Assembly: GCA_011939005.1 (NCBI GenBank) | Contig: GCA_011939005.1_4858.1 | DNA: 64,000 bases | Reading direction: 5' to 3' (one strand) | Source: a phage | Shown here: positions 12,086 to 61,106 of the stretch, one piece after another | Layout: the number at the start of each line of letters is the position of its first letter | Position numbering within the stretch: the stretch's first letter is position 1 | Translations under genes and position numbers: made by a program | The notes under the pieces: generated by a model | Databases searched by the model: none | What the model saw: only the letters and a program-made list of their open reading frames with translations | What the model was told of the DNA's origin: nothing

Positions 12086-12577
12086 TTATTCTGAATAGTC
12101 GATTGTTTTGATGGTTTCCATACCGTAGTACATAGCGATGGAGGCCAGAGTTTTGGTATCAGGTCGCTGTACAAAACCGGCCCTGAAATCTTTGCTGCAA
12201 ATTTTCTCCACTGATAGTTCATCACGATTAGGGATAAGCCATAACGCGTCACCGTTGTGACGGTCGACTGCACCCCACCAACCACCTGGGCAATCTTTAT
12301 CGCCCGGACGGTGTACGATAGCGACACGTCCGTTGAAGGATATGTCAACTACACGACACTGTTTCTTAAGCAGCTTACGCGCATTGCACCAGAACGGCTT
12401 ATCATTAAGATTGATGGTGCGGGTATATGCTGGAATGCTGCCGTTAATACTGCCCTGGAACCCGCTGAATTCGTCAGCGCGTGCCTTAGAAATCCGTAGC
12501 CCAACAACAACTGCCATCAACAGCACAGTAAAAAGCACCACCTTAATCAGGTGGTGATTAACGTTATTGCATTTCAT
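12086..12577 (-). CDS. exported or membrane-anchored protein (163 aa)
   Basis: ATG at 12577 with GGAGA RBS; N-terminal hydrophobic stretch LIKVVLFTVLLMAVVVGL. Confidence 0.55.
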   Translation of the reverse strand: MKCNNVNHHLIKVVLFTVLLMAVVVGLRISKARADEFSGFQGSINGSIPAYTRTINLNDKPFWCNARKLLKKQCRVVDISFNGRVAIVHRPGDKDCPGGWWGAVDRHNGDALWLIPNRDELSVEKICSKDFRAGFVQRPDTKTLASIAMYYGMETIKTIDYSE

Positions 12578-12965
12578 TTTTGATATCTCCACGAATGAGG
12601 GTGATGCGACCAACGAGCACATCGTTGTGATAAAAACTCACAGCAACCAGATCTGGCAATTCCAACGGCGATACGCTGACCGAAGTGACTTTTGGTTGAT
12701 CGCACGATATGTCGATTAATCGCTGATACATTTTCAGTTTCTTATCAGCGATAACCAGCCCTGTGCAGTTCTTACCATCCGTCAGTTTGTAGATTTGTAA
12801 CTGTTCGACCTCACGCATCAGTTCCGGTTTTTCATTCGGTGCAATGCCATAATCCGAATCAGCTGATGTGTATTCAGTCACGTCTGGCTTATCGAAAGCA
12901 TAAGTTGCTGCGATACCACATGCGGCCAGAACTACTACTGCTTGTAAGAACTTCTTGATAGTCAT
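12564..12965 (-). CDS. putative lipoprotein (133 aa)
   Basis: N-terminus MTIKKFLQAVVVLAACG with lipobox-like LAAC. Confidence 0.55.
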   Translation of the reverse strand: MTIKKFLQAVVVLAACGIAATYAFDKPDVTEYTSADSDYGIAPNEKPELMREVEQLQIYKLTDGKNCTGLVIADKKLKMYQRLIDISCDQPKVTSVSVSPLELPDLVAVSFYHNDVLVGRITLIRGDIKNEMQ

Positions 12966-13022: not shown

Positions 13023-13063
13023 GAGTTAATCTCTTAACTCTCACCTAAGTAATATATATCTGA
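13023..13063 (-). promoter_or_regulatory. conserved element copy 1: palindrome gagttaa-N4-ttaactc plus shared 30-mer
   Basis: 30-mer ttaactctcacctaagtaatatatatctga at 13034-13063 is identical to 61077-61106; both carry the same upstream inverted repeat. Confidence 0.4.
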
Positions 13064-16717: not shown

Positions 16718-16838
16718 TTGGTATTTCCTTTTAAAGTACACTAAAGTGACCAAAAAATGTTACTAAAGAACAGTTGGTGTTTAAGCGACTGTGGGTTTAT
16801 ACACAATGCTCACTAAGATGACATCTATCTGTAAAAAC

Positions 16839-35584: not shown

Positions 35585-36472
35585 ATGAAAAACGATTTGC
35601 ATCTTGCGTATAAAACCACATTCAACCACCCGCTGCATCTATCTTCCCCAGATTCAGTGCGTGCACATCTCGCTGACAAAGTCAGACTGATTGCACAGAT
35701 TCCTGGTGAGTGGCCAAAGGTTCGTGGTCGCTTCTTGACCGACAAGAAGAACTACACCGTAGAAAATACGTTTAAGATCCGTGATATGGTTGCAGAGGCC
35801 ATCGTTATCTTTAACGGCGATGGTAACTCTCGCGGCGTGTTGGTTGACGGTAAGTATTTCTTCAGTGAAGGGATTCTGAACAACAGTGTCGATTTAGAAC
35901 TGATGTTTACACCGTTTGACGAACTTGAAGCAAAACCGATGGCGCGCCGTTGGTGGAGTCCGGACTATCTGGGCTCGTTCCCTTACTACTTTGTACTGGT
36001 ACCTGCCGATACGGAAACGTATTTCGACACCGAACCATACATCGATATCGAGGGGTATAAAGAACTCGGCATCACCCGTTTAGCGGACATGATGGCGTAT
36101 AGCTATAAGTTCGTGTGGGATAAAAAGCGTTCTGTCTGGTATGCGCTGACTGACGATTTTGAAATCACCAAGCGTATTCGTAAGCCGTGGATGCAACACC
36201 TGGTTCAAACTCGATATGGGGATTACCCGGCGACAGAAGCGGATTTGAGTAAGCTGGTAAGTTTCCTCTTAACGAAGGTGGATTTAACGAAAGAAGAAGC
36301 AGAAGCTGTTTCTGAGATTCGTGGTCGTTCGGTAACGTTGGCCGATTTGAAACGTCTGAACGAAAGACACGCCGACCTGAACAAAATTTTAGCTGCCTAT
36401 CACGACCCGATGTTACTGGTGCCTGGCGCTAACGTAGACGAAGATCCTTTATTCGCCATTGATTATATTTAA
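35585..36472 (+). CDS. hypothetical protein (295 aa) in radical-SAM cluster
   Basis: ATG with GGAG RBS; no recognisable motif. Confidence 0.65.
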   Translation: MKNDLHLAYKTTFNHPLHLSSPDSVRAHLADKVRLIAQIPGEWPKVRGRFLTDKKNYTVENTFKIRDMVAEAIVIFNGDGNSRGVLVDGKYFFSEGILNNSVDLELMFTPFDELEAKPMARRWWSPDYLGSFPYYFVLVPADTETYFDTEPYIDIEGYKELGITRLADMMAYSYKFVWDKKRSVWYALTDDFEITKRIRKPWMQHLVQTRYGDYPATEADLSKLVSFLLTKVDLTKEEAEAVSEIRGRSVTLADLKRLNERHADLNKILAAYHDPMLLVPGANVDEDPLFAIDYI

Positions 36473-36494
36473 AAATATACTGGAGCAACCTGCA

Positions 36495-37409
36495 ATGACA
36501 GATCAAGTAGAATCCAGGATCTCGTCTGAACTGTACGACAAACCGTCAATTCTGTCGGTTGTCGCAACTTCTAAGTGTAACTTAGACTGTAGCTTCTGTG
36601 GAGGGGCTTATTACATGGATAGAGAAGATACTTCTCGTGAGTTTCAACGTGAAGAGATTCTCTCGATTTTAGAGAAGAATCCGGATATCGGTGAGATTCA
36701 TTGGACGGGCGGTGAGCCGCTGTTAGCGCAGCGCAAGATTGAAGACTTCGTGAACGAGTTGAAGGAGTCTCATCCGAACCTCCGTCATCACATGTACACC
36801 AACGGTTTAAAGATGCGTAAATCACATCTGCCGTTGCTGAAACAGTTCGACCTTATCTTTGTGTCCATTGACGGCTACAAGAAGTCGGAACGTCCGTTTA
36901 TGAACTTTGTAAACGGTGGTAATCACGAAGCGCTGGAAGTGCTGTACGAGCTGGACAACTATTACACCTGGGGTGTGATGACGCGTGACCAGTTAGGTGA
37001 TAAACGCTGGTACGAAGATTTCATCGAGCTGCACCGAGCAATCTATCATTACCGTCCAGGTGGTATGTCGTTGCTGTTTGATGCGATGATGCCGAAACCG
37101 TTATCGCCAGACCACGTCATGAACTTCATGTACGGGTATTGGAAAATACTCGACAATATCGAACGCCTTAACATGCAGAACGATTCTGAATGTGGGCTTG
37201 CGATCAGTAAAATGTTCGATACCGAGTGCAACACGTGCAGTGAAGTGCTGTGGCTTAACGCCGACGGTACGCAGGAGCAAATTCAGAACGCCCCAGAGAT
37301 ATTGGAAGTCGGCTGTAATCGCCTGGCGCGTTCTATCGGCGTTGATGCGTATAACTACATCAACCGTGTAATTTCTGCTAAGCGTAAACGGGCGGCGAAC
37401 AATGAGTAA
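36495..37409 (+). CDS. radical SAM enzyme (305 aa)
   Basis: CNLDCSFC (CxxxCxxC) near N-terminus, GGEPLL and YTNGL motifs, additional C-terminal Cys (ECNTCSEV...GCN); ATG at 36495 with GGAG RBS. Confidence 0.8.
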   Translation: MTDQVESRISSELYDKPSILSVVATSKCNLDCSFCGGAYYMDREDTSREFQREEILSILEKNPDIGEIHWTGGEPLLAQRKIEDFVNELKESHPNLRHHMYTNGLKMRKSHLPLLKQFDLIFVSIDGYKKSERPFMNFVNGGNHEALEVLYELDNYYTWGVMTRDQLGDKRWYEDFIELHRAIYHYRPGGMSLLFDAMMPKPLSPDHVMNFMYGYWKILDNIERLNMQNDSECGLAISKMFDTECNTCSEVLWLNADGTQEQIQNAPEILEVGCNRLARSIGVDAYNYINRVISAKRKRAANNE

Positions 37410-38730
37410 TAGCGAACAGCAAATCCAGTACACACCACGCACGTATCAGGTTGTGACTAACCTGTCATGTAACCTGGACTGCGAATACTGCTACGAGCGT
37501 AAATATCCACGCAATAACAAAGTAGCTGACGTGATTGATTTTATCCACGCTTGCTTCGAGCGCGATAAAGATATCCCGAACGTTGAAGTCATCATCGATA
37601 TCATCGGTGGTGAGCCGTTCATGCAGCCTAAACTTCTTTTGGCGGCCTTTGAAACCGCAGAGAAGTTATGCGCAGAACACAATCGCCCGTATATGTTCAG
37701 TATCTCCACGAACGGTACACTTCTGGACCGTCCGCTGAACAAAGAAATTATCGAGCGCTGGAAAGACAAACTGTCTATTGGGGTCTCCATCGATGGTTTA
37801 CCTGAAGTCCATGACAAATATCGTATCTTTACCACGACGCGTGAAGGGTCGTACGAAGCTGCGGTACGTGGTTACAATTATCTGAAGAGTGTTGGCATCG
37901 CTGAACTGGGCGTAAAGGCGACGTTTACGATCGATACATTGCCGCACTATGCCGCCAGCATGAAATCGTTAATTGACATGTCCGGCGGTGGTACCATTTC
38001 TGGTAACGTAACGTACGAAGATATCCTACCGCGCCATATGGCGTTGGATATCGCGAACCAGATGATGGACGTGATGGACTACTGGATTGAGAAGGGTCTG
38101 CACACCAACCCGCGTAACACGATTACACACATCATCCCGGATGGCCTGAACTTTATGGCAACTTGGGACCCGGATTGGCGTGACAAACTCTTACATGACG
38201 ACTCTGTTCGTCTCGACCCAGAACGCCTGAAACCGTACTGCGGTACGTTGACGCACATGACCTGTCTCGGCTTTGATCGCAAGATTTACGGTTGTAACCG
38301 TTTCATGTCCACGGTAACTTCCCGTTCTGCTGTAGCAGAACTGGTCGGTCGTGAGTTTGTGAGCCTGGACGGTGGTAAGCTGTTAGAAGAGATTCAAACG
38401 CAGTACACCAACTACCCAGAAACCTGTTTAGGGTGTCCGATGAAACACAGTTGCGGTAGCTGCGCGGCAGCATCGTACGAAAACGGTGAAGGTACACTGG
38501 AAGACCGTAAAGCGTATCATGCCGAGCGTCGTCAGTGTGGTTGGACTACTGCGAAGCTGATGGCGGCAGAATATTGGTATCAGAAAACTGGTACGACCCG
38601 CGCATCAGATTTGCATGATAAATCCATGTGCTATTGTTCACGTTGTGTACGCCAACGTGCTGAAGCAGAAAAATTACAAAACGGAGCCCAGAATGAAGTC
38701 AATACTGATTCACAATTTTACGAAGCGTAA
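37402..38730 (+). CDS. radical SAM enzyme with SPASM-like C-terminal Cys cluster (442 aa)
   Basis: CNLDCEYC, GGEPF, STNGTLL motifs; C-terminal CLGCPMKHSCGSCAAASY and CYCSRC; overlaps previous gene by 8 nt. Confidence 0.85.
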   Translation: MSNSEQQIQYTPRTYQVVTNLSCNLDCEYCYERKYPRNNKVADVIDFIHACFERDKDIPNVEVIIDIIGGEPFMQPKLLLAAFETAEKLCAEHNRPYMFSISTNGTLLDRPLNKEIIERWKDKLSIGVSIDGLPEVHDKYRIFTTTREGSYEAAVRGYNYLKSVGIAELGVKATFTIDTLPHYAASMKSLIDMSGGGTISGNVTYEDILPRHMALDIANQMMDVMDYWIEKGLHTNPRNTITHIIPDGLNFMATWDPDWRDKLLHDDSVRLDPERLKPYCGTLTHMTCLGFDRKIYGCNRFMSTVTSRSAVAELVGREFVSLDGGKLLEEIQTQYTNYPETCLGCPMKHSCGSCAAASYENGEGTLEDRKAYHAERRQCGWTTAKLMAAEYWYQKTGTTRASDLHDKSMCYCSRCVRQRAEAEKLQNGAQNEVNTDSQFYEA

Positions 38731-39259
38731 ACTGCACTTGGTCGATCGCTTCCTGCGCAAAAGCAAGCTGTACAATGTGCACGCAATTGTGGCAGGGGAA
38801 GACTTCACTGATGAAATCCAAAGCCTGTTGATTAAATACGGGCTGAATGTGATGATCCCGGTCTACTGCGTTGAGAAAGGACACGAGTCTGTCGCAGAAA
38901 TCGAAAAGCGCAATCCTGGCTTTGAGAAGCGATTGCTCGCATACCCACGCCACAAAATCGAACTGCTACGTCATTCCATCGATGAAGCCAGTCCTGAAAG
39001 TTTAGTGGCTTTGGGCTTGTCTTTCCCGCGGATGCGTATTCGTAACTTACGCTCCAATAATCCGGTCGACGCGTATTACACAGAGCGTCAAATCTTTGAA
39101 GAACATCTGCTCCCGCAGTTGGAAGAAGAAGAGCAACACAACATTTCGTTGTTGTGGGCCGGTAACCTCGATCAGGACTTCCAGATGCTGGACTTCGGTT
39201 TGTTGTTAGAACTTGGCCTGATTGAGGAGGACGAATGTCTGTTACTGACAAAAGCTTAA
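38693..39259 (+). CDS. hypothetical protein (189 aa) in radical-SAM cluster
   Basis: ATG at 38693 with ACGGAG RBS preferred over track start 38615. Confidence 0.5.
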   Translation: MKSILIHNFTKRKLHLVDRFLRKSKLYNVHAIVAGEDFTDEIQSLLIKYGLNVMIPVYCVEKGHESVAEIEKRNPGFEKRLLAYPRHKIELLRHSIDEASPESLVALGLSFPRMRIRNLRSNNPVDAYYTERQIFEEHLLPQLEEEEQHNISLLWAGNLDQDFQMLDFGLLLELGLIEEDECLLLTKA

Positions 39260-39906
39260 CGAACGAAGAGATCCGCGCCCGTTATTTCCAGCGCAATTTG
39301 CCGATTGACCGACACGGCAACTTCATGGAACGTATCGGTGCAGAGGATCAAGGCCGTACAGGCTTTTGCGCTCTGCTCCATTATCATCTCATCGAAGGGA
39401 TGTCTGATAAAGAAGCCCTGGCACGCATGAAGCTGTATGAGATGTCGGAGATTGAAGCTAACTTCACATTGAAACGCACGAAAGAGTTTATTGCTAATGT
39501 GCTGGAGATTGACCTCGACGAAATTCGCGGGAATCTAAAATCTACCGCACGTTACATTTACGAAGACGTGCAGAAGATGCTGTTGGAACTCGACCACCGC
39601 TACGAAGATGAGCGCCATGGTTATATCGAGTTTGAAGGTAGTCACTTTCAAGCCGATGAATCGTCGCGTACCATCCTCGGTCAATACATTCAGGCAGATA
39701 CCGCACCAGAATACTGGCTCGATACGCTGAATACTAAGCACAGTCCGTTTACAGTAGACCAATGTAAAGCGTTGTTGGGCGCTATTGTTGCACGCGACCA
39801 AGTGTTGCACTCAGCAATGGCAGATAACAAACGCCAAATCCGTGAGTTAGCTGAAAAGCGCGATTACACTGGATTAAAAACATTGTCCGAGTCACTCGGC
39901 ATGTAA
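39235..39906 (+). CDS. hypothetical protein (223 aa) in radical-SAM cluster
   Basis: ATG with perfect GAGGAGG RBS; followed by terminator. Confidence 0.65.
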   Translation: MSVTDKSLTNEEIRARYFQRNLPIDRHGNFMERIGAEDQGRTGFCALLHYHLIEGMSDKEALARMKLYEMSEIEANFTLKRTKEFIANVLEIDLDEIRGNLKSTARYIYEDVQKMLLELDHRYEDERHGYIEFEGSHFQADESSRTILGQYIQADTAPEYWLDTLNTKHSPFTVDQCKALLGAIVARDQVLHSAMADNKRQIRELAEKRDYTGLKTLSESLGM

Positions 39907-39908
39907 GC

Positions 39909-39965
39909 AAAGAAAATAAAGGCCCTACCTCCCCGAAGGGAGGTAGGTACCTTTTATTTATTTCT
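39909..39965. terminator. bidirectional rho-independent terminator
   Basis: Hairpin ccctacctcccc-gaa-gggaggtagg flanked by A-run and T-run; closes the plus-strand block. Confidence 0.7.
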
Positions 39966-39987
39966 TAGAAACTACTAAGTTGTTTTG

Positions 39988-40515
39988 TTAAACGAATCCG
40001 TCCAGTTCACCGTTGGTGGTACTCAGGTCAGTTTTAACGATTGGCTGCGTTACAGTATAAACTGCAAGGCTGGCAGGCTGGTATTTAATGTGGCCTTCTT
40101 TCACCTTAACAGTGATGATTTTCTCACCACTGTCGCCGTCCTCGCGTGTAATGGTGAGTTCAGACAATGCAAACGCATCTTCCGTTTTACCGGCAGCAAT
40201 TAGATCTGCGTTGACAAAAGCAAGCACTTCTTCATCGGTATCCCATTCTGCCTGGTCAGCGGTAACTGCTTTCGCACCGATGATGTTCAATGAATCGAGG
40301 CGGGTATAATGCAGCTCTTTCTCGCCAGTAAAGTTAGCGGATTCCGCGGTGGCAGTGATGGTGAGTTTGGAGTTGCGATGGTCTCCAGAATCTGCTGGTG
40401 AATAGTCAGCAACAGCGCCGAATGTAACGTCAGCAGAAGTTAACGGACTAGACAGTCCGCTGTTTGCAGCATTAAACAGCGCAACGAGTTGGTCTTTTGC
40501 AGAGATGACTGCCAT
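39988..40515 (-). CDS. short member of the shared-N-terminal-domain family (175 aa), C-terminus ...TNGELDGFV
   Basis: ATG at 40515 with AAGGAAA RBS; N-terminus aligns with the tandem paralogs further downstream. Confidence 0.6.
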   Translation of the reverse strand: MAVISAKDQLVALFNAANSGLSSPLTSADVTFGAVADYSPADSGDHRNSKLTITATAESANFTGEKELHYTRLDSLNIIGAKAVTADQAEWDTDEEVLAFVNADLIAAGKTEDAFALSELTITREDGDSGEKIITVKVKEGHIKYQPASLAVYTVTQPIVKTDLSTTNGELDGFV

Positions 40516-40639
40516 GGTTGTTTCCTTATAGTAGGTTTGTGGTGCATACCAAATCATTCTAAAAAATACATAGTGGGGTTAATATGACAGTAAAGTTGGC
40601 TGTTAAACGAGAAAGTTTTTACCACTGAAAGGATACCTT

Positions 40640-41131
40640 ATGAAACGTCTATTTATCGTATTCGCGATTATAAACCTGTTGGTCGGTTGTGTTCAGTCGC
40701 CAAACAACATCGGGCAATTTAGCGCCACGCCAGTAAAGAATCACGACTTGGTGATTTATACATGCACAGGAACGCAGGAGAAGTTTGTAGACTACCGTCC
40801 GGTTCTGGACAACCTACAAATGATGCCGCGGTCAGTAACAGTATTGGATGTGGGTGCAAGCTGGGTAGCAACGTGGGACGGTGGCAAACTTGAGTCACCG
40901 ATGATGTTTAAAGATACAATTGGCAAAATCGACGGGAATGTTAACACCACCACAGGTGAGCGTTATTACCGTATTAATAAAACCGTAAACGATAGCCCCA
41001 CTTACTCTTTTTCGGATGTGAACCCGTATACCGGCGAAGGTAAAGGGATGACATTCTTTCGCTGCAGCAGCGGGTTTATCGGTGAAGTTCCTACCCCGAT
41101 TACGATTGTTCCGTTAGAAGAAAATAAATAA
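40640..41131 (+). CDS. putative lipoprotein (163 aa)
   Basis: AAGGAT RBS; N-terminus MKRLFIVFAIINLLVGCVQ with lipobox LVGC; divergent from the family gene at 39988..40515. Confidence 0.7.
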   Translation: MKRLFIVFAIINLLVGCVQSPNNIGQFSATPVKNHDLVIYTCTGTQEKFVDYRPVLDNLQMMPRSVTVLDVGASWVATWDGGKLESPMMFKDTIGKIDGNVNTTTGERYYRINKTVNDSPTYSFSDVNPYTGEGKGMTFFRCSSGFIGEVPTPITIVPLEENK

Positions 41132-41175
41132 TGCTTACCCACTCCCGTAAGGGGAGTGGGTAAGGGCTTTATTTA
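41121..41175. terminator. rho-independent terminator (bidirectional)
   Basis: Hairpin cttacccactccc-gtaa-ggggagtgggtaag with flanking A-run and T-run. Confidence 0.65.
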
Positions 41176-41256
41176 CCCTCTAAAACGCTCTGTAACGCTC
41201 TCTAAGCGCATTAAACGTATCAAATGATAAATGATATTACTTTTGATTAAAGTGGC

Positions 41257-41772
41257 TTAGATTTTAACTAGCTTGCTCCAATCGATGGGTTGTTGCTTAA
41301 CCACTTTAACGGTACCACGTGTCGGTGACCAGAAGGTGATATCAGGCTGGTTGCGTACGTCAACATGCAGCCAGGTAATATCGCACTCGATAAAGTGAAT
41401 AAATGGAAACTCGTCAGGGTTCGCGGCAATATAATCGTGCACTTTCTGCAACGGAGTATCAAGCATTGTTGCATCAAACGCATTACCGAATTTATGCATA
41501 CTGCCTGATTCGGCGTACAGTTTGTTTGCACGAGTTTGCCAATCGCCACCCTTTGGTTTCTCTTGATTAATAAAGAACTGCAGGGTACGCAGACTACGCT
41601 GTTGCTGGGAACTGGTTAAAATCACCATCCGCCCAAAACGATTACGAATCTGTTGGAGCGAGATTAGCAGTAACGGATTAAGGAAACGAATAGCACCTTC
41701 ACCGTATTTCGCGATGTACTCCTGCGGCATCAACTCTTTTAACGCGAAGTTGGCAGGATTCGGATGAAACAT
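41257..41772 (-). CDS. peptidase M15-family zinc peptidase (putative L-Ala-D-Glu endopeptidase-type lysin)
   Basis: SMHKFGNAFD (S.H..G.A.D) and WLHVDV motifs; ATG with AAGGAGA RBS. Confidence 0.65.
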   Translation of the reverse strand: MFHPNPANFALKELMPQEYIAKYGEGAIRFLNPLLLISLQQIRNRFGRMVILTSSQQQRSLRTLQFFINQEKPKGGDWQTRANKLYAESGSMHKFGNAFDATMLDTPLQKVHDYIAANPDEFPFIHFIECDITWLHVDVRNQPDITFWSPTRGTVKVVKQQPIDWSKLVKI

Positions 41773-41781
41773 TTTCTCTCC

Positions 41782-42423
41782 TTAAGGGGTAGTCAGGAAC
41801 GCGCGTTTGATATTCAAATACTGCACGTTTACCGGTTGCCCATTAGTAATGTCAACACGTTCGTGTTCAGGAATCGCTAACGTACGCGATGTTCTAAAGA
41901 ACAGGTAGTTGCGATTATAGGACAACGTCTTTTCTACCGGCCGGCTATAAACCACCTTAGAGTTATCGTCTACATAGGACGGCCAACCAAACTCGTGAAC
42001 GGCATGGTAGAAGGACTTACGAATAAAGGTGTCAACGCCTAATGCCTCCATGATGCGTAAGAACATCAAGTCAGCGAACGTTTTGTCACATGCACGAGAT
42101 AGATTACCTTCAACGGTGTCAGGGTAAAAGCCTACCGATGAACGTTTCTGGTAAAACAAATCATGCACACAAGCGGCAGCGGCCCAAGGCCCATCCGGAT
42201 GCAGGATAGGACGTAACGTTTCTGGAATGCTTGCCAGGTCCGTCACAAATCCTCTCGGTACCGTTACCCATAACGGGGTATCCGGATGCACACCTGCTAA
42301 TGCTACCATCGCATCCATTCCGGTCTGTTCACGATAGAGGCTGCGCAACGTAAACTCGAAATGGAAATCATCCGTGAGGATAAACCACGGCTTCTCTAAC
42401 AACTTATACTTAAGTGCTTCCAT
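41782..42423 (-). CDS. hypothetical protein (213 aa) within lysis module
   Basis: ATG with GAGGTC RBS; GFVTDLASIP segment; function unknown. Confidence 0.6.
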   Translation of the reverse strand: MEALKYKLLEKPWFILTDDFHFEFTLRSLYREQTGMDAMVALAGVHPDTPLWVTVPRGFVTDLASIPETLRPILHPDGPWAAAACVHDLFYQKRSSVGFYPDTVEGNLSRACDKTFADLMFLRIMEALGVDTFIRKSFYHAVHEFGWPSYVDDNSKVVYSRPVEKTLSYNRNYLFFRTSRTLAIPEHERVDITNGQPVNVQYLNIKRAFLTTP

Positions 42424-42426
42424 ACT

Positions 42427-42522
42427 GACCTCATGTCATATAACGCACGAGCATCGTGAGGACCATTAATCCCAGTAAAATGGGCATTAAGCCTTTCGGC
42501 CAGTCGTCGTTGTCGTATTGCA
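42427..42522 (-). CDS. tiny membrane peptide (31 aa), possible lysis accessory
   Basis: Hand-translated MQYDNDDWPKGLMPILLGLMVLTMLVRYMT with GAGGG RBS; not in ORF track. Confidence 0.3.
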
Positions 42523-42639
42523 TGGCTTTACCCTCTGACAGAAGATCGTGCGTAATAGTTTGAAGAACCCAGAATCGTAATACGTTTCCGGAACAGTTTG
42601 TACTTCGGGGAACTTAGGCGGAGTTGGACGGTGGGTCAT
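42487..42639 (-). CDS. small ORF (50 aa) overlapping the 31-aa peptide gene
   Basis: ATG with strong AAGGAGA RBS; hand-translated MTHRPTPPKFPEVQTVPETYYDSGFFKLLRTIFCQRVKPCNTTTTTGRKA. Confidence 0.3.
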   Translation of the reverse strand: MTHRPTPPKFPEVQTVPETYYDSGFFKLLRTIFCQRVKPCNTTTTTGRKA

Positions 42640-42711
42640 TACGTTTTCTCCTTGCAGCAAAAACAAGGGCGCGCCAGATAGCTTTCATTAAGGCAGCAAA
42701 CCAATTCTGTT

Positions 42712-43329
42712 TCATTTACACATCCCCAACTTAGCCACGTAGTCTGGCATTTCCTGATAGACGCGGCCATACCAGCCGTAAGTAAACTCTTCGTTATCCT
42801 CACGCCCTTCACTGATTTCCGTGTAGTACGCTACCTGATGACAGGTTAAAGCGAATATCAGTCGATTTAGGCCCTCTTCCCCACGAGCTTTGATAAAGCC
42901 TTCTAACGCTGTTAACGTACGTGGTCCAATACCACCGTCGGCATCGATATCGTCGTACAGTTTACCCTGACGGTTTAATACGTTCAGAATGCGCTGCAGG
43001 GACTTGATACAGTTGCCACGACCTGCGTTGATGCCGAAATCAAACATCCGGTCAGCTAGCAGGACATTCATTTTCATAATCTGGTCTAAGCGCATCCGCT
43101 GCCACCAGAGCTTGTTGTAAATGTCTAACGCGGTTTCTAGGCTCAGGTCACGCATATCCCCTTTATAGCCATATTCACGCGCCGTGAGTTCGGTGACACC
43201 ACGGTTCGTTGCTTTACCCAAATCTTTCGGGTTATTAACGTAACCGGCTTCGATGTTTACTTTGGCACGAATAATGCCCTCTTTACTCCAACGATCGACC
43301 ACGATAACCTCCTGCGTTGATAGGGTCAT
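42712..43329 (-). CDS. GH108-like muramidase with PG_binding_3-like domain (endolysin candidate)
   Basis: IEAGYVNNPKDLGKATNRGVT resembles the GH108 EGGYVN.P.D.GG.T..GIT motif; DADGGIGPRTLTAL resembles a peptidoglycan-binding motif; ATG at 43329 preferred over track start 43365. Confidence 0.65.
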   Translation of the reverse strand: MTLSTQEVIVVDRWSKEGIIRAKVNIEAGYVNNPKDLGKATNRGVTELTAREYGYKGDMRDLSLETALDIYNKLWWQRMRLDQIMKMNVLLADRMFDFGINAGRGNCIKSLQRILNVLNRQGKLYDDIDADGGIGPRTLTALEGFIKARGEEGLNRLIFALTCHQVAYYTEISEGREDNEEFTYGWYGRVYQEMPDYVAKLGMCK

Positions 43330-43361
43330 AAAAAGAAAGCCTCTTCCCCGTGGGGAAGAGG
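43330..43361 (-). terminator. rho-independent terminator
   Basis: Hairpin cctcttcccc-gtg-gggaagagg with T-run on minus strand. Confidence 0.6.
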
Positions 43362-43416
43362 GCATGGGTTATTCTCAGGCTTTAACCCCGTCAAGTTCCT
43401 CGTTAAATTATGATAA

Positions 43417-45585
43417 CTATTTCTTTGGCCGCACCCACGGTTTAGGGGCGGATTTGGTATACGGATTACATTCCATCATCTTACCGAGGTAGGCATCGTA
43501 ATACACGAAGCGATCGACATAGAACTTCTCCACCGGTGCACTACTGGTAGCCGATTTCACCCGGTTGCGTTCCACAGCGAGGCTAATCGCCCCGGTAGGT
43601 GCGGGTTTTAGCGTGAACATTACCGCGCGGTTGTAACGCCAAGTGTCGTGCACAATATCAAACTCCGATACACAGTGTGCCATGATACCAAACAATGTGG
43701 TGGCTGGTAAGTTGGCTACAGCATCGCCGTATGGTGTTCCCACCAAACCGCCGGGTATGTTTTGCTTTTTGAACAGCGTACCTGAAATAATCGTACCTAA
43801 GAACTCCACAACTACAGGCTTGGTTGGGTCGGTGACTTTATCTATCCCATCCGCACTGGCCAATCGGTTGGCATCTAAATCTGCGAGGTAGTCGAGGAAC
43901 TCTTGGTACTCGTCGGTAACATTCGGTTTCACCGTTCCGACGGATACCCAGTTGACGATACTTTTATTCCCACCGACAGCTTCGCCTGCCATCCCAGGGC
44001 GAGTCCATGACATCCCGTCTTCACGACCGTAGACATAGACTGGCGAGCCGGTAGCCGGGGTGTTCCATTGCTCGAACGCTGTATATCGTCCCGGCTGGCC
44101 CCAATCCCCACCCGGACCGCCATAGTAGCGACTCTGGTAGCCGGTAAATTGCGCGACGACTAACTGGGTAGCACCGCCTTTGTCACGGGACCCAGCTAAG
44201 CCGTTACGGTTATTGGTGCCGCTGGGCACCGCCGCGCCTGGCCCGAGAGGCGCACCACCAGCTCCACCGATCTTGGTGGTGCTAAACGCATAGTAGTCGC
44301 CCCCACCCCCACCACCGGCGATGGTGCCGTAGTTTTCGATGGTGACTTTGCCACGGAAGGTATCGCTAATGTGGATTGCGTCAGCTCCGTCCGCTGATGT
44401 GTTCGCAGGCATAGAGTAGACCACACCCGAACCACCACGACCAAGAATGGTTCCCCGGTTAACGAAGTTCCAAACCACCTCGCCAATTTGCGGCAATTCG
44501 TCGATAACGAACGTCGGTTTCAGGTTGCTGTCGCGATAAACGAAAGCCCCCGCATCTACGGTCACGTTAACAAACAAACGCCCGCACGCCGCATGGTTGG
44601 TCAACGTTGTGGCCCAGTAGCTGTCCGAAAGTTGCGACGTAGTTGTGTAGTTCAGGTTAAGGGTTTGCTCGTTATCTTGATAGCGTGCTACATTCAACGT
44701 GGCACTGCCCATGACTTTGTACGAACCCTCTACGGGTGCCAATTGCACTTGTCTCGGCCACTCGCCTGCCAGGTTCTCTACAGGAGCAATTTCGTTTACA
44801 TCAAAAACACTCCGAATGCCGAGTGTCTCGATGGCCAGAGCATCGTGCAGGCTACCGGTGAAATCATCCGGGACGTATGTGGTTTTGCCTGCATATGTCT
44901 CGAGTTTGTTACGTGAGAAGAACACATACTTCGTTCCAAACATCCCGCTCCCCGGTCTAGCGGTCAAAGCTACGACGCTGTTATACGCAGAGGTTTGGCC
45001 TATATCCTCCGGGGACATCGGGGCGCTGACATCGACTTTATCAAGATCCACGATCCGTTTGGTTGCATTAGAGTAGAAGTTAATCCACTGCTGCTTATTC
45101 GCAGCCTTTAGCGTGAAAATGATATTGGTAACAGTGTAGACAGTGTTGATATCCACGTCACCGTTTATCACATCTAGCGTTTGGCTGCCGTACCAGATAA
45201 GACTTGTCTGTTTCGCCTGGAACGTGATGCGCGCAGCATTGTTTGTCCAAGTGATGGGCAGGTCTTCAAAGTCGTCGGTTAAAAAGGTAATCCCTAGTAG
45301 AGTGTCTAAATGCGGCAACAGTTCGTGGATGGACGCACAAGTGGGAATGGCATCCAACTTAACCTTGGCGAAATAATCAGCAATATTTTGCTTCGTGACT
45401 TGGGCCGTAATTTGACCGTAACTAGAATACCCCGGACCCCCTGTCAGTGTGACGTCTAGGGTTTTTTCGTCACGATGCGCCACGGACACCAGGCGTACGT
45501 TAGCGGGGTCTACTGCTTTGGCGACCGCGTTTTTACGGTTGAGCGACCGAATCACGGTCGCCACTAAATCGGGAGTGTATGACAT
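43417..45585 (-). CDS. tail fibre-like protein with Gly-rich segment (722 aa)
   Basis: ATG with AAGGTG RBS; N-terminus resembles the family domain; GGGGGG and Gly-rich stretch; C-terminus SAPKPWVRPKK parallels SKTAPVPWYPAL of 45600..46919. Confidence 0.8.
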   Translation of the reverse strand: MSYTPDLVATVIRSLNRKNAVAKAVDPANVRLVSVAHRDEKTLDVTLTGGPGYSSYGQITAQVTKQNIADYFAKVKLDAIPTCASIHELLPHLDTLLGITFLTDDFEDLPITWTNNAARITFQAKQTSLIWYGSQTLDVINGDVDINTVYTVTNIIFTLKAANKQQWINFYSNATKRIVDLDKVDVSAPMSPEDIGQTSAYNSVVALTARPGSGMFGTKYVFFSRNKLETYAGKTTYVPDDFTGSLHDALAIETLGIRSVFDVNEIAPVENLAGEWPRQVQLAPVEGSYKVMGSATLNVARYQDNEQTLNLNYTTTSQLSDSYWATTLTNHAACGRLFVNVTVDAGAFVYRDSNLKPTFVIDELPQIGEVVWNFVNRGTILGRGGSGVVYSMPANTSADGADAIHISDTFRGKVTIENYGTIAGGGGGGDYYAFSTTKIGGAGGAPLGPGAAVPSGTNNRNGLAGSRDKGGATQLVVAQFTGYQSRYYGGPGGDWGQPGRYTAFEQWNTPATGSPVYVYGREDGMSWTRPGMAGEAVGGNKSIVNWVSVGTVKPNVTDEYQEFLDYLADLDANRLASADGIDKVTDPTKPVVVEFLGTIISGTLFKKQNIPGGLVGTPYGDAVANLPATTLFGIMAHCVSEFDIVHDTWRYNRAVMFTLKPAPTGAISLAVERNRVKSATSSAPVEKFYVDRFVYYDAYLGKMMECNPYTKSAPKPWVRPKK

Positions 45586-45599
45586 GGTGACACCTTAGT

Positions 45600-46919
45600 C
45601 TATAGCGCTGGATACCAAGGGACCGGGGCAGTTTTGCTATATGGACTGTAGACCATATAGCCGCCTTTGCTTGGGTCGTAATAGATGAAATAGTTACAGT
45701 AATTCGAGTAGAGGCTCGTCATTTGTTTGGATTGGTATCCGTTACGGTATAGTCCCTGGTAAGTAGTAGCTGATGTCGTGGTGGTGTAAGCAGTGTGGTA
45801 CAGTACCCGACGTCGGTTAGCAATACTTTCTTGGAACATCTCTTCGGTCGGAAACGCGTGTTGCATCAGCCGTCGAATACTCCCGGTACAGTATCGAGTG
45901 CCATACGGGGAACCCGTTAAATCATCCGCAGTTTCAGGCGATTCTGCCCGAGTCAACACGTACTCGTTTTGATACAACGTGACGCTCATCGAATTTGGGC
46001 TGGTTTCCCGGAAACTCATGTAACGCGCATAACGTTCGACGTCCTCTTCCTGCGCCAAATAGGCCACGTTATTTTTCGGACCAAAGTGCAAGAAGAACGG
46101 ACGGCGGAGATTACCCATATCCTCAGGTGGCGTCAACTTCACGCAGTAATTGTACTCCCCACGCATATCAGGGTCTAAGCCTGGGTTGTTATTGCGTGTA
46201 GCGACATACCCATAGAGGTCATACGGGTTATCAGTAGCAGCATTACCGATAGTGAACGGGATGCCCGACCATGCCGACAGCGCCGCGATGAACTGGGTCA
46301 TGTACGAGTTACTGTTTAGTCGCAGCGGGGTACCCATCTGGATATTGATTATCTGTTGGGTGTACATGCTCCAGTCGAGTCGATAGACCGTGCTGTAAAC
46401 ATCCATGGGTTCCCAAGCTCCGGTTTCGGTGGTGTGGTACAAGTCGGCAAAGCTGGGCTCTTCACGAATAAAGCTAATAGGAATGTGACCCGTGAATGCG
46501 GGGTTATCCGATTTAATCGCCACCGTCCGATCGCCCGTTGCCACAGTGATCATTGCAAACTGGCTGTCAGGATACGTTAAATCGTCAGCAGTAAGCACCA
46601 GCCCACAAGCTGCGGAAATCCGGTCGATGATGTCGCGGTAGACCGTCGCCCGATAAGGTACTTTAACCGGTACGCTGACGCCTTTAAAATACTGCGAAAG
46701 GTTTAAGCGGTCGTAGTAGATGTCCATCTTACCGCTGTAACCACCACCCTGTAATCCGTTTACCACGATACGGCTGTTGCGACCATCGCGCAAGGCATTG
46801 GTTAAAGGACCTTGTAATAACGCCACGTTGGTTGCGTTGAGCGGTTTCTTGAGCTGCGGGTTATCACGATTAATCTGATCCCAAACCAGTTGCATGACAG
46901 GTTTGTTATAGTTGATCAT
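45600..46919 (-). CDS. family paralog, C-type (439 aa)
   Basis: N-terminus MINYNKPVMQLVWDQINRDNP and VYYDRLNL motif shared with other members. Confidence 0.8.
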   Translation of the reverse strand: MINYNKPVMQLVWDQINRDNPQLKKPLNATNVALLQGPLTNALRDGRNSRIVVNGLQGGGYSGKMDIYYDRLNLSQYFKGVSVPVKVPYRATVYRDIIDRISAACGLVLTADDLTYPDSQFAMITVATGDRTVAIKSDNPAFTGHIPISFIREEPSFADLYHTTETGAWEPMDVYSTVYRLDWSMYTQQIINIQMGTPLRLNSNSYMTQFIAALSAWSGIPFTIGNAATDNPYDLYGYVATRNNNPGLDPDMRGEYNYCVKLTPPEDMGNLRRPFFLHFGPKNNVAYLAQEEDVERYARYMSFRETSPNSMSVTLYQNEYVLTRAESPETADDLTGSPYGTRYCTGSIRRLMQHAFPTEEMFQESIANRRRVLYHTAYTTTTSATTYQGLYRNGYQSKQMTSLYSNYCNYFIYYDPSKGGYMVYSPYSKTAPVPWYPAL

Positions 46920-61066: not shown

Positions 61067-61106
61067 GAGTTAATTGTTAACTCTCACCTAAGTAATATAT
61101 ATCTGA
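61067..61106 (-). promoter_or_regulatory. conserved element copy 2: palindrome gagttaa-N3-ttaactc plus shared 30-mer
   Basis: 61077-61106 is identical to 13034-13063; lies between a terminator and the RBS of gene 60585..61031. Confidence 0.4.

Follow-up and report, generated by a model that had tools for sequence, protein, structure and literature searches.

The 64,000-nucleotide phage contig analysed here (GenBank assembly GCA_011939005.1, contig GCA_011939005.1_4858.1; referred to below as the window) contains at 40640..41131 an open reading frame (ORF) whose product had been proposed (hereafter the original prediction) to be a lipoprotein acting in superinfection exclusion, by positional analogy to Llp of phage T5. 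A 1.35-kb query comprising the ORF and its flanks (39900-41250) is 95-98% identical to the SPN3US-like jumbo Salmonella phages of the genus Seoulvirus, which have genomes of about 240 kb, and the product is 93% identical to SPN3US gp159 (SPN3US_0159), annotated as 'hypothetical protein'; we refer to the gene and its homologues as gp159. The reading frame is unbroken in six Seoulviruses, with a mean ratio of nonsynonymous to synonymous substitution rates (dN/dS) of 0.22, and judged by these rates the gene is evolving under purifying selection. Its amino acid change (dN 0.029) exceeds that of its neighbours gp157, gp158 and gp161. No second copy of the lipoprotein gene was found in the rest of the window.

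That the ORF encodes 163 residues with a canonical lipobox, as originally predicted, is borne out by the ORF itself, by pattern matching and by hydropathy. The N-terminus, MKRLFIVFAIINLLVGC, has a charged n-region (K2/R3) and an uncharged hydrophobic core with an h-region hydropathy of 2.5, and the lipobox L14-V15-G16-C17, encoded at nt 40679-40690, ends a segment (VFAIINLLVGC) that fits the PROSITE-type pattern [LVI][ASTVI][GAS]C with the cysteine within about residues 15-35. There is no hydrophobic segment in gp159 besides this N-terminal one, and no C-terminal transmembrane domain. Among the annotated genes of SPN3US a whole-genome scan recovered a lipoprotein signal in only three (gp159, gp180 and gp205). 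By its sequence features gp159 is a bacterial-type lipoprotein precursor, a predicted substrate for Lgt and LspA, and the mature form of the window homologue would have 147 residues (16.3 kDa, isoelectric point 5.1). Under the Lol sorting rule of Enterobacteriaceae, aspartate at position +2 specifies inner-membrane retention. Residue +2 is valine in the window, alanine or serine in most other family members and aspartate in none, and because valine occupies this position and the aspartate retention signal is lacking, gp159 is probably sorted to the outer membrane.

A further expectation, that the protein is not part of the virion, agrees with the proteomics of SPN3US particles. SPN3US gp159 is missing among the 86 virion proteins of the 2017 proteome (PMC5694885), and in a 2023 re-analysis its peptide-spectrum matches (PSMs) numbered 0, 0 and 3 across the wild-type virion replicates, the positive one reaching 24.7% coverage, and 0, 0 and 0 in tailless heads, and it was classed as 'Non-virion' (PMC10052503, Tables S2 and S5). 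Since there are only trace peptides together with the 'Non-virion' class, we conclude that gp159 is produced but is not a structural component of the virion.

The gene lies head-to-head with the gp160 homologue, as had been proposed, across a spacer of 124 nt that holds the sequence TAATATGAC, with the tetramer TATG at 40583-40586. The block is kept in SPN3US, in EC001 and in a diverged metagenome locus (L018), and its counterpart in Erwinia phage ChrisDB, TATTATGAC, contains TATGAC. Late promoters of phage phiKZ have a TATG consensus in which the G is the transcription start (PMC4666361). Across the SPN3US genome (loci L008-L012) the pattern [AT][AGT]TATG[AC] is present upstream of 8 of 18 virion operon starts as against 3 of 53 other gene starts, a comparison for which the p-value is optimistic, the test being post hoc with the pattern picked after the data had been seen. 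These distributions suggest that a TATG late promoter of the phiKZ type is also at work in SPN3US-like phages. A second promoter-like motif, the sharply conserved GATA[GT]AT[AG]TTA[CT]CT..GTG (in its longer form ttcaGATA[GT]AT[AG]TTA[CT]CT.aGGTG), occurs at 17 intergenic sites of SPN3US and resembles TATATTAC, the core of phiKZ early promoters; in Seoulviruses it is probably the mark of promoters used early, by the virion RNA polymerase. All three copies of this motif in the window lie elsewhere, and none is present in the gp160/gp159 spacer. On the evidence of these motifs gp159 is probably expressed late and in dependence on the non-virion RNA polymerase. A scan for sigma-70 promoters returned 8 sites against 15 expected by chance, and such promoters are irrelevant to phages that use their own RNA polymerases. 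A TTTTTAC k-mer upstream of gp159 was also considered as a promoter motif and dropped, most of its other instances following terminator hairpins and T-tracts.

The hairpin that follows gp159 is strong, with a predicted energy of -28.4 kcal/mol on one strand (z about -6.0) and of -27.3 kcal/mol on the other (z about -5.4). The gene had been described as flanked by its own terminators, and this holds for the hairpin directly after it; the other terminator lies beyond gp160 and forms the left boundary of the divergent gp160/gp159 pair, so that the two bracket the pair and not gp159 alone.

A small phage family with a predicted barrel fold

In profile searches the only family hit was phrog_9559, an uncharacterised family matched over its full length (E 1.9e-80, residues 3-163 against positions 6-166 of 166). 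There was no match in Pfam or NCBIfam even at permissive thresholds, and for 13 family members none in Pfam at E <= 10. Word-indexed and exhaustive HMMER searches of 1.84 billion cluster representatives gave 13 hits, two of which, P0019 (1177 aa) and P0020 (5404 aa), were matched in 10-11 stretches, judged artefacts and not counted as homologues; P0019 has apolipoprotein-type repeats and a 7TM receptor domain, indicating a repeat-driven match, and P0020 shows the same multi-stretch pattern. The SPFM 'homologues' P0005-P0009 were likewise ignored, as they match only in short stretches, their best local alignment covering 12-17% of the query, and for several SPFM records the alignment to the window falls into about 20 pieces. 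The length of true members is 134-188 aa and their identity outside the genus 25-62%, and tblastn finds them in Seoulvirus, Goslarvirus (Goslar gp88), Machinavirus, many other Erwinia jumbo phages, and STsAS/SPAsTU. By these searches the family is tiny, restricted to phages, and confined to jumbo phages of Enterobacterales. Some members are labelled 'Lipoprotein' in UniProt, and those grouped under this name in phrog_9559 from Erwinia phages (Asesino gp174, Kwan and Huxley), together with Goslar gp88, are true homologues with the same length class, lipobox, two invariant cysteines and neighbourhood; they are uncharacterised, and the family name conveys no function. We conclude that gp159 is a real and conserved lipoprotein gene of Enterobacterales jumbo phages.

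Every full-length member examined has the lipobox cysteine and the two further invariant cysteines. In an alignment of 12 members (A2) the lipobox cysteine, C42, C142, G72, R108, Y110, R111, S125, G132, G134 and G136 are invariant; in one of 13 members (A3) the lipobox cysteine is absent only from a sequence that lacks the whole N-terminal region, and D70 is invariant. The invariance of C42 and C142 fits an oxidising, periplasmic location. An AlphaFold model of the window protein, built on 13 sequences, is all-beta with a mean predicted local distance difference test score (pLDDT) of 79, mostly above 90 in a core of about residues 28-145, and it has a helical signal peptide, a low-confidence linker (18-23) and a disordered C-terminal tail (146-163). 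The model puts C42 on the first of its long strands and C142 on the last, which suggests a disulfide that closes the barrel. No solved structure is close to the predicted fold, a small barrel made up of beta strands throughout: Foldseek of the model against the PDB found nothing below E = 1e-3, and a profile search of PDB sequences gave only chance hits (E > 0.04). Among viral models Foldseek matched nothing beyond members of the family and a small number of other phage lipoproteins, also uncharacterised, and T5 Llp was not among the hits.

The resemblances that the fold does have, to LolA (Foldseek E 5e-3), lipocalins, YceI, nitrobindin and putative lipid-binding proteins, raise the question of whether gp159 could be a barrel of the lipocalin, YceI or LolA kind that binds lipid or another hydrophobic ligand and supports or reshapes the outer membrane of a cell enlarged by infection, or manipulates the host in some other way unrelated to adsorption. 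Every one of these fold matches is weak, however, and such a role leaves unexplained why the gene is invariably placed in fibre modules (see below); we regard it as unlikely, and rank it after the lysis role discussed in the following section.

Neighbouring genes and context across lineages

The genes and signals around gp159 are collected in Table 1. The original prediction took the divergent neighbour, the gp160 homologue, for a member of a fibre-associated family and by implication a receptor-binding protein. The family assignment stands, through the match to DUF7941, but the receptor-binding role does not. For SPN3US gp160 the PSM counts were about 583 (wild-type virions) and about 509 (tailless particles), and its copy number is estimated to be above 300, making it one of the most abundant head proteins (PMC10052503); it belongs to 'paralog family B', which has 21 members by the 2023 re-analysis (PMC10052503) and has been assigned to the head (PMC5694885, PMC10052503). 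The gp160 homologue has no receptor-binding domain, and a GP38 adhesin-like domain was found only in other DUF7941 members, such as the gp155 homologue. gp160 evolves fast, with a dN/dS of 0.58 among Seoulviruses over its first 450 nt; JN03 and EC001 have a different C-terminus, and three tandem copies are present in ChrisDB. SPN3US gp155 was located in the head by proteomics despite its adhesin-like domain (PMC5694885), and it may be a head-borne adhesin in a flagellotropic phage; at the gp155 position JN03 carries a different virion gene, of 298 aa, beside its gp156 homologue. Further upstream in the window are two adjacent radical-SAM genes (gp164 and gp163 homologues, 36459..38730, +), syntenic with the lipoprotein/fibre region in SPN3US, ChrisDB, L005 and L018.

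Table 1. Coordinates of gp159 and of the surrounding genes and signals in the window.
Feature	Position	Strand	Description
gp161 homologue	39235..39906	+	DUF4376
Bidirectional terminator	39924..39947	both	past 3' end of gp160 homologue; common to convergent gp161 homologue
gp160 homologue, 175 aa	39988..40515	-	small DUF7941 protein (Pfam E 3.6e-11); phrog_4862
Conserved upstream block AGTGGGGTTAATATGACAGT	40572..40591	+	TATG at 40583-40586; putative late-type (non-virion RNA polymerase) promoter; G 40586 candidate start site
Shine-Dalgarno AAGGA	40629..40633	+	6 nt 5' of ATG, read from sequence; kept in related phages
gp159 coding sequence, 163-aa lipoprotein precursor	40640..41131	+	ATG start; homologue of SPN3US gp159 (SPN3US_0159); phrog_9559
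Type II signal peptide, residues 1-16, and acylated Cys17 (predicted)	40640..40690	+	pattern match, hydropathy, invariant Cys
Bidirectional intrinsic terminator, 13-bp stem	41134..41164	both	begins 3 nt past gp159 stop; common to gp159 (+) and convergent gp158 operon (-)
gp158 homologue	41257..41772	-	M15-like peptidase
gp157 homologue	41782..42423	-	DUF1353
30-aa transmembrane micro-ORF	42431..42523	-	between DUF1353 and GH108 muramidase genes
gp156 homologue	42712..43365	-	GH108 + PG_binding_3 muramidase
gp155 homologue	43417..45585	-	N-terminal DUF7941 + GP38 tail-fibre-adhesin-like domain
gp154 homologue	45600..46919	-	DUF7941
Early-type motif, three copies	13047-13060, 16816-16829, 61090-61103	-	

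Across lineages the lipoprotein gene lies inside a fibre/DUF7941 module in all seven that were examined, and its immediate neighbour varies. In the SPN3US-like phages, in L018 and in ChrisDB it is divergent from one to three gp160-like genes; in Goslar and the Goslar-like contig L003 it comes next after a P1 S-like tail fibre and its Caudo_TAP (Tfa) chaperone, in the same direction; in L017 it follows a different tail fibre and a DUF4376 protein, and in L004 a gp169-like tail/baseplate protein; and in L005 and L019 it ends an array of DUF7941 genes. Where the arrangement is co-directional the gaps before the lipoprotein gene are just 13-44 nt, which implies co-transcription with structural genes. 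Between Goslar and its variant L017 the lipoprotein is 87% identical, the small DUF7941 protein 64% and the downstream gene 37%, and the distal fibre has been replaced and the chaperone is non-homologous. An exported protein cannot help the assembly of fibres in the cytoplasm, so that the linkage to fibre modules would point to a shared target in the envelope.

On its other side gp159 is convergent with a cluster of genes (gp158 to gp156 homologues, 41257..43365, -) that ends at the terminator shared with gp159; this GH108/DUF1353/M15-like cluster adjoins the lipoprotein gene in the window, L005, L018 and L019 (the SPN3US/Erwinia clade). Like gp159, gp156-158 are classed as 'Non-virion' in SPN3US (PMC10052503). 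Within the cluster, 8 nt upstream of the DUF1353 gene, is the micro-ORF MQYDNDDWPKGLMPILLGLMVLTMLVRYMT, which has one transmembrane helix and a counterpart in L018 (MQYDNDDWPKGLMPLLFGLMVITLIVRLLA). The peptide may be holin-like or otherwise act in lysis, in which case gp156-gp158 would constitute a lysis/peptidoglycan-hydrolase cluster.

This proximity is the basis for a role of gp159 as an accessory to lysis, a late outer-membrane lipoprotein that would help or time the disruption of the envelope together with the adjacent hydrolases, either in a non-canonical o-spanin-like manner or as a regulator. The convergent position in four loci, the conserved micro-ORF and the late-type promoter motif all agree with it, and an outer-membrane lipoprotein signal and probable late expression are shared with o-spanins of the lambda Rz1 type. 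The architecture is different, however: o-spanins are short, Pro-rich and unstructured, whereas gp159 is predicted to be a well-folded barrel of 147 aa with 6.8% Pro, and no i-spanin gene is adjacent to or overlaps it: in the window, Goslar, L004, L005 and L017, none of its neighbours has a transmembrane domain. The lack of a C-terminal transmembrane domain also separates it from u-spanins of the T1 gp11 type, and on these architectural grounds (fold, Pro content, transmembrane domain and partner) both the o-spanin and the u-spanin identities were ruled out. In Goslar-type phages, moreover, the gene is part of a fibre operon and no hydrolase gene is close to it. We therefore consider a lysis role unlikely, if first among the alternatives to the reading that we prefer below.

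A pair that fits the spanin role better is found outside the window (L011:33017-33976), where SPN3US gp204, with an N-terminal transmembrane domain and a Pro-rich C-terminus, is followed after 10 nt by gp205, which has the lipobox LLTGC. Neither has a function annotated in GenBank or PHROGs. By their organisation they resemble a separated i-/o-spanin pair and are a better candidate than gp159, and since this pair exists gp159 would not be needed as an o-spanin.

The nearby hydrolases, together with a weak fold resemblance, also bear on whether gp159 is a periplasmic inhibitor or regulator of peptidoglycan hydrolases similar to MliC/PliC, which could be directed against the tail-associated lysin of superinfecting phages, as in the logic of T4 Sp (a functional analogue), or restrain the phage's own hydrolases until lysis. 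MliC/PliC differ in that gp159 has no homology to them at the profile level: the Pfam search of 13 members described above included PF09864, and an hhalign comparison with E. coli MliC aligned the signal peptide alone, which rules out MliC homology at the sequence level. This role appears improbable.

Candidate roles at the cell envelope

The analogy by position to the T5 oad/llp pair was examined against the T5 record, in which a promoter region of 79 nt separates the divergent llp and oad (Pb5) genes; the divergent geometry of gp160/gp159 does resemble this, and it is the correspondence of the partner to a receptor-binding protein that fails. The likeness extends to the proteins, both being small single-domain lipoprotein precursors with a type II signal that are non-virion, have a transcription unit of their own and are divergent from a virion gene of the adsorption region. 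There are several differences. T5 Llp is a lytic conversion lipoprotein that blocks FhuA, and in mature form it has 61 aa, gp159 being a predicted barrel of 147 aa; the partner gene encodes the receptor-binding protein in T5 and a head protein in the window, and in Goslar-type phages the lipoprotein gene instead follows the fibre and chaperone genes co-directionally. T5 llp is expressed early, whereas the gp159 promoter is probably of late type. An hhalign comparison of Llp (the sequence used is 100% identical to the T5 records) with the A3 profile aligned residues 1-18 only, corresponding to the signal peptide, and homology was rejected. The phages differ too, that of gp159 being a nucleus-forming jumbo myovirus for which the use of flagella is reported (PMC11428620).

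A strict interpretation of the T5 analogy, and of the Cor-type exclusion lipoproteins (phi80, N15, T1, HK022), would have gp159 bind and inactivate the outer-membrane receptor of a neighbouring receptor-binding protein. The divergent geometry, the position directly after tail fibre and chaperone in Goslar-type phages, and the predicted character of a non-virion outer-membrane lipoprotein are all as expected for such masking. Cor proteins are likewise small phage outer-membrane lipoproteins that block infection at the envelope, but gp159 differs from them in the absence of any Pfam or other profile match to them, and Cor proteins, whose target is entry through FhuA, come from siphoviruses that are temperate or T1-like. 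Llp-type proteins are expected to track the receptor specificity of their phage. The receptor reported for SPN3US is the flagella (PMC11428620), and a lipoprotein facing the periplasm, as gp159 is predicted to do, could not mask the filament.

Several observations weigh against exclusion as the function of gp159, and the first five of them are also those that stand against masking. The divergent neighbour is an abundant head protein and not a receptor binder. The lipoprotein, to judge from the Goslar and L017 sequences, does not co-vary with the adjacent fibre tip, being kept where both tip and chaperone are swapped. The reported receptor is flagellar, there is no homology to Llp, and the promoter is likely to be late-type. 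Beyond these, gp159 has no Pfam or NCBIfam family, the probable late-type promoter, and the tight co-directional spacing behind structural genes in other lineages, differ from what is seen in early exclusion genes, and in the SPN3US/Erwinia clade the peptidoglycan-hydrolase cluster is equally close to gp159, which suits the lysis-related alternatives. Taken with the evidence in its favour, they leave receptor masking in the strict sense very unlikely.

We nevertheless favour a role at the level of the envelope that is linked to infection or re-infection, because an exported protein is invariably embedded in the adsorption module. The mechanism that we infer as a whole, including its outer-membrane localisation, disulfide and late timing, would be as follows. 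The lipoprotein would be made in the infected cell, probably late and with the virion genes, and left out of the virion; after export and lipid modification at Cys17, the Lol system would deliver it to the outer membrane of the host, in whose inner leaflet it would be anchored, and a linker of about 10 residues would keep a compact, disulfide-stabilised beta-barrel near the periplasmic face. The envelope of the infected cell, and the debris and vesicles remaining after lysis, would be altered such that related phages could not productively attach or penetrate, a function in lytic conversion, exclusion or the prevention of readsorption that recalls T5 Llp. As the lipoprotein does not track the specificity of the neighbouring fibre, we propose that it would act on something conserved, either a component of the envelope or a step after adsorption; a secondary receptor, penetration by the tail, and the step of peptidoglycan crossing and ejection would be examples. 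We put the probability that gp159 acts at the envelope as an exclusion or anti-readsorption lipoprotein, with a conserved step as its target, at about 0.35, and the reading is offered as tentative. Counted in its favour, besides the placement in fibre modules, are the lipobox with valine at +2, the invariant cysteines, the non-virion status, the restriction of the family to Enterobacterales jumbo phages, and amino acid change that outpaces neighbouring genes despite purifying selection. A bolder version, which we hold to be doubtful, is that gp159 represents a structural class of exclusion lipoproteins that is new and peculiar to the nucleus-forming jumbo phages of Enterobacterales, a late beta-barrel tethered to the outer membrane that would act independently of the fibre and either block a conserved post-adsorption step (penetration by the tail, or ejection across the envelope) or neutralise receptors on lysis debris.

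The window contains a second predicted lipoprotein, the gp180 homologue (12564..12965, -; 133 aa, lipobox LAAC), which is preceded by the early-type motif GATATATATTACTT (13047-13060, -) and followed by a gp181 homologue with a signal peptide (about 12086..12577, -). As a putative early envelope protein it would be a candidate for superinfection exclusion at least as good as the gp159 homologue.

Many isolate assemblies of Salmonella, E. coli and Shigella (NCBI, ENA; P0001 and P0021 protein clusters) include SPN3US-like or Goslar-like phages as nearly complete contigs of about 235-248 kb, which suggests that these 'virulent' jumbo phages are frequently carried in a carrier state or by pseudolysogeny. 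Whole phage contigs among them, of about 240 kb, carry the lipoprotein gene, and they would fit a carrier state that makes exclusion advantageous.

We know of no account of how nucleus-forming jumbo phages handle superinfection or the loss of progeny on debris. A literature search on SPN3US with lipoprotein or spanin, and on exclusion lipoproteins of jumbo phages, found nothing relevant, and a 2026 review of jumbo phage biology makes no mention of superinfection or lipoproteins. gp159 is a concrete candidate, being conserved, non-virion, predicted to be targeted to the envelope, and embedded in the adsorption module, and if the bolder version above is correct, no factor for superinfection exclusion or against readsorption that acts at the envelope would have been described before it in the Chimalliviridae. 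These jumbo phages are under development for biocontrol of Salmonella, E. coli and Erwinia, and if gp159 excludes related phages the design of cocktails would be affected, as carriers could interfere mutually. Exclusion by gp159 could also expose a conserved envelope step that is used by this group of phages; should it prove instead to be a factor in lysis or in hydrolase control, it would help to define the still unannotated lysis system of SPN3US-like phages.

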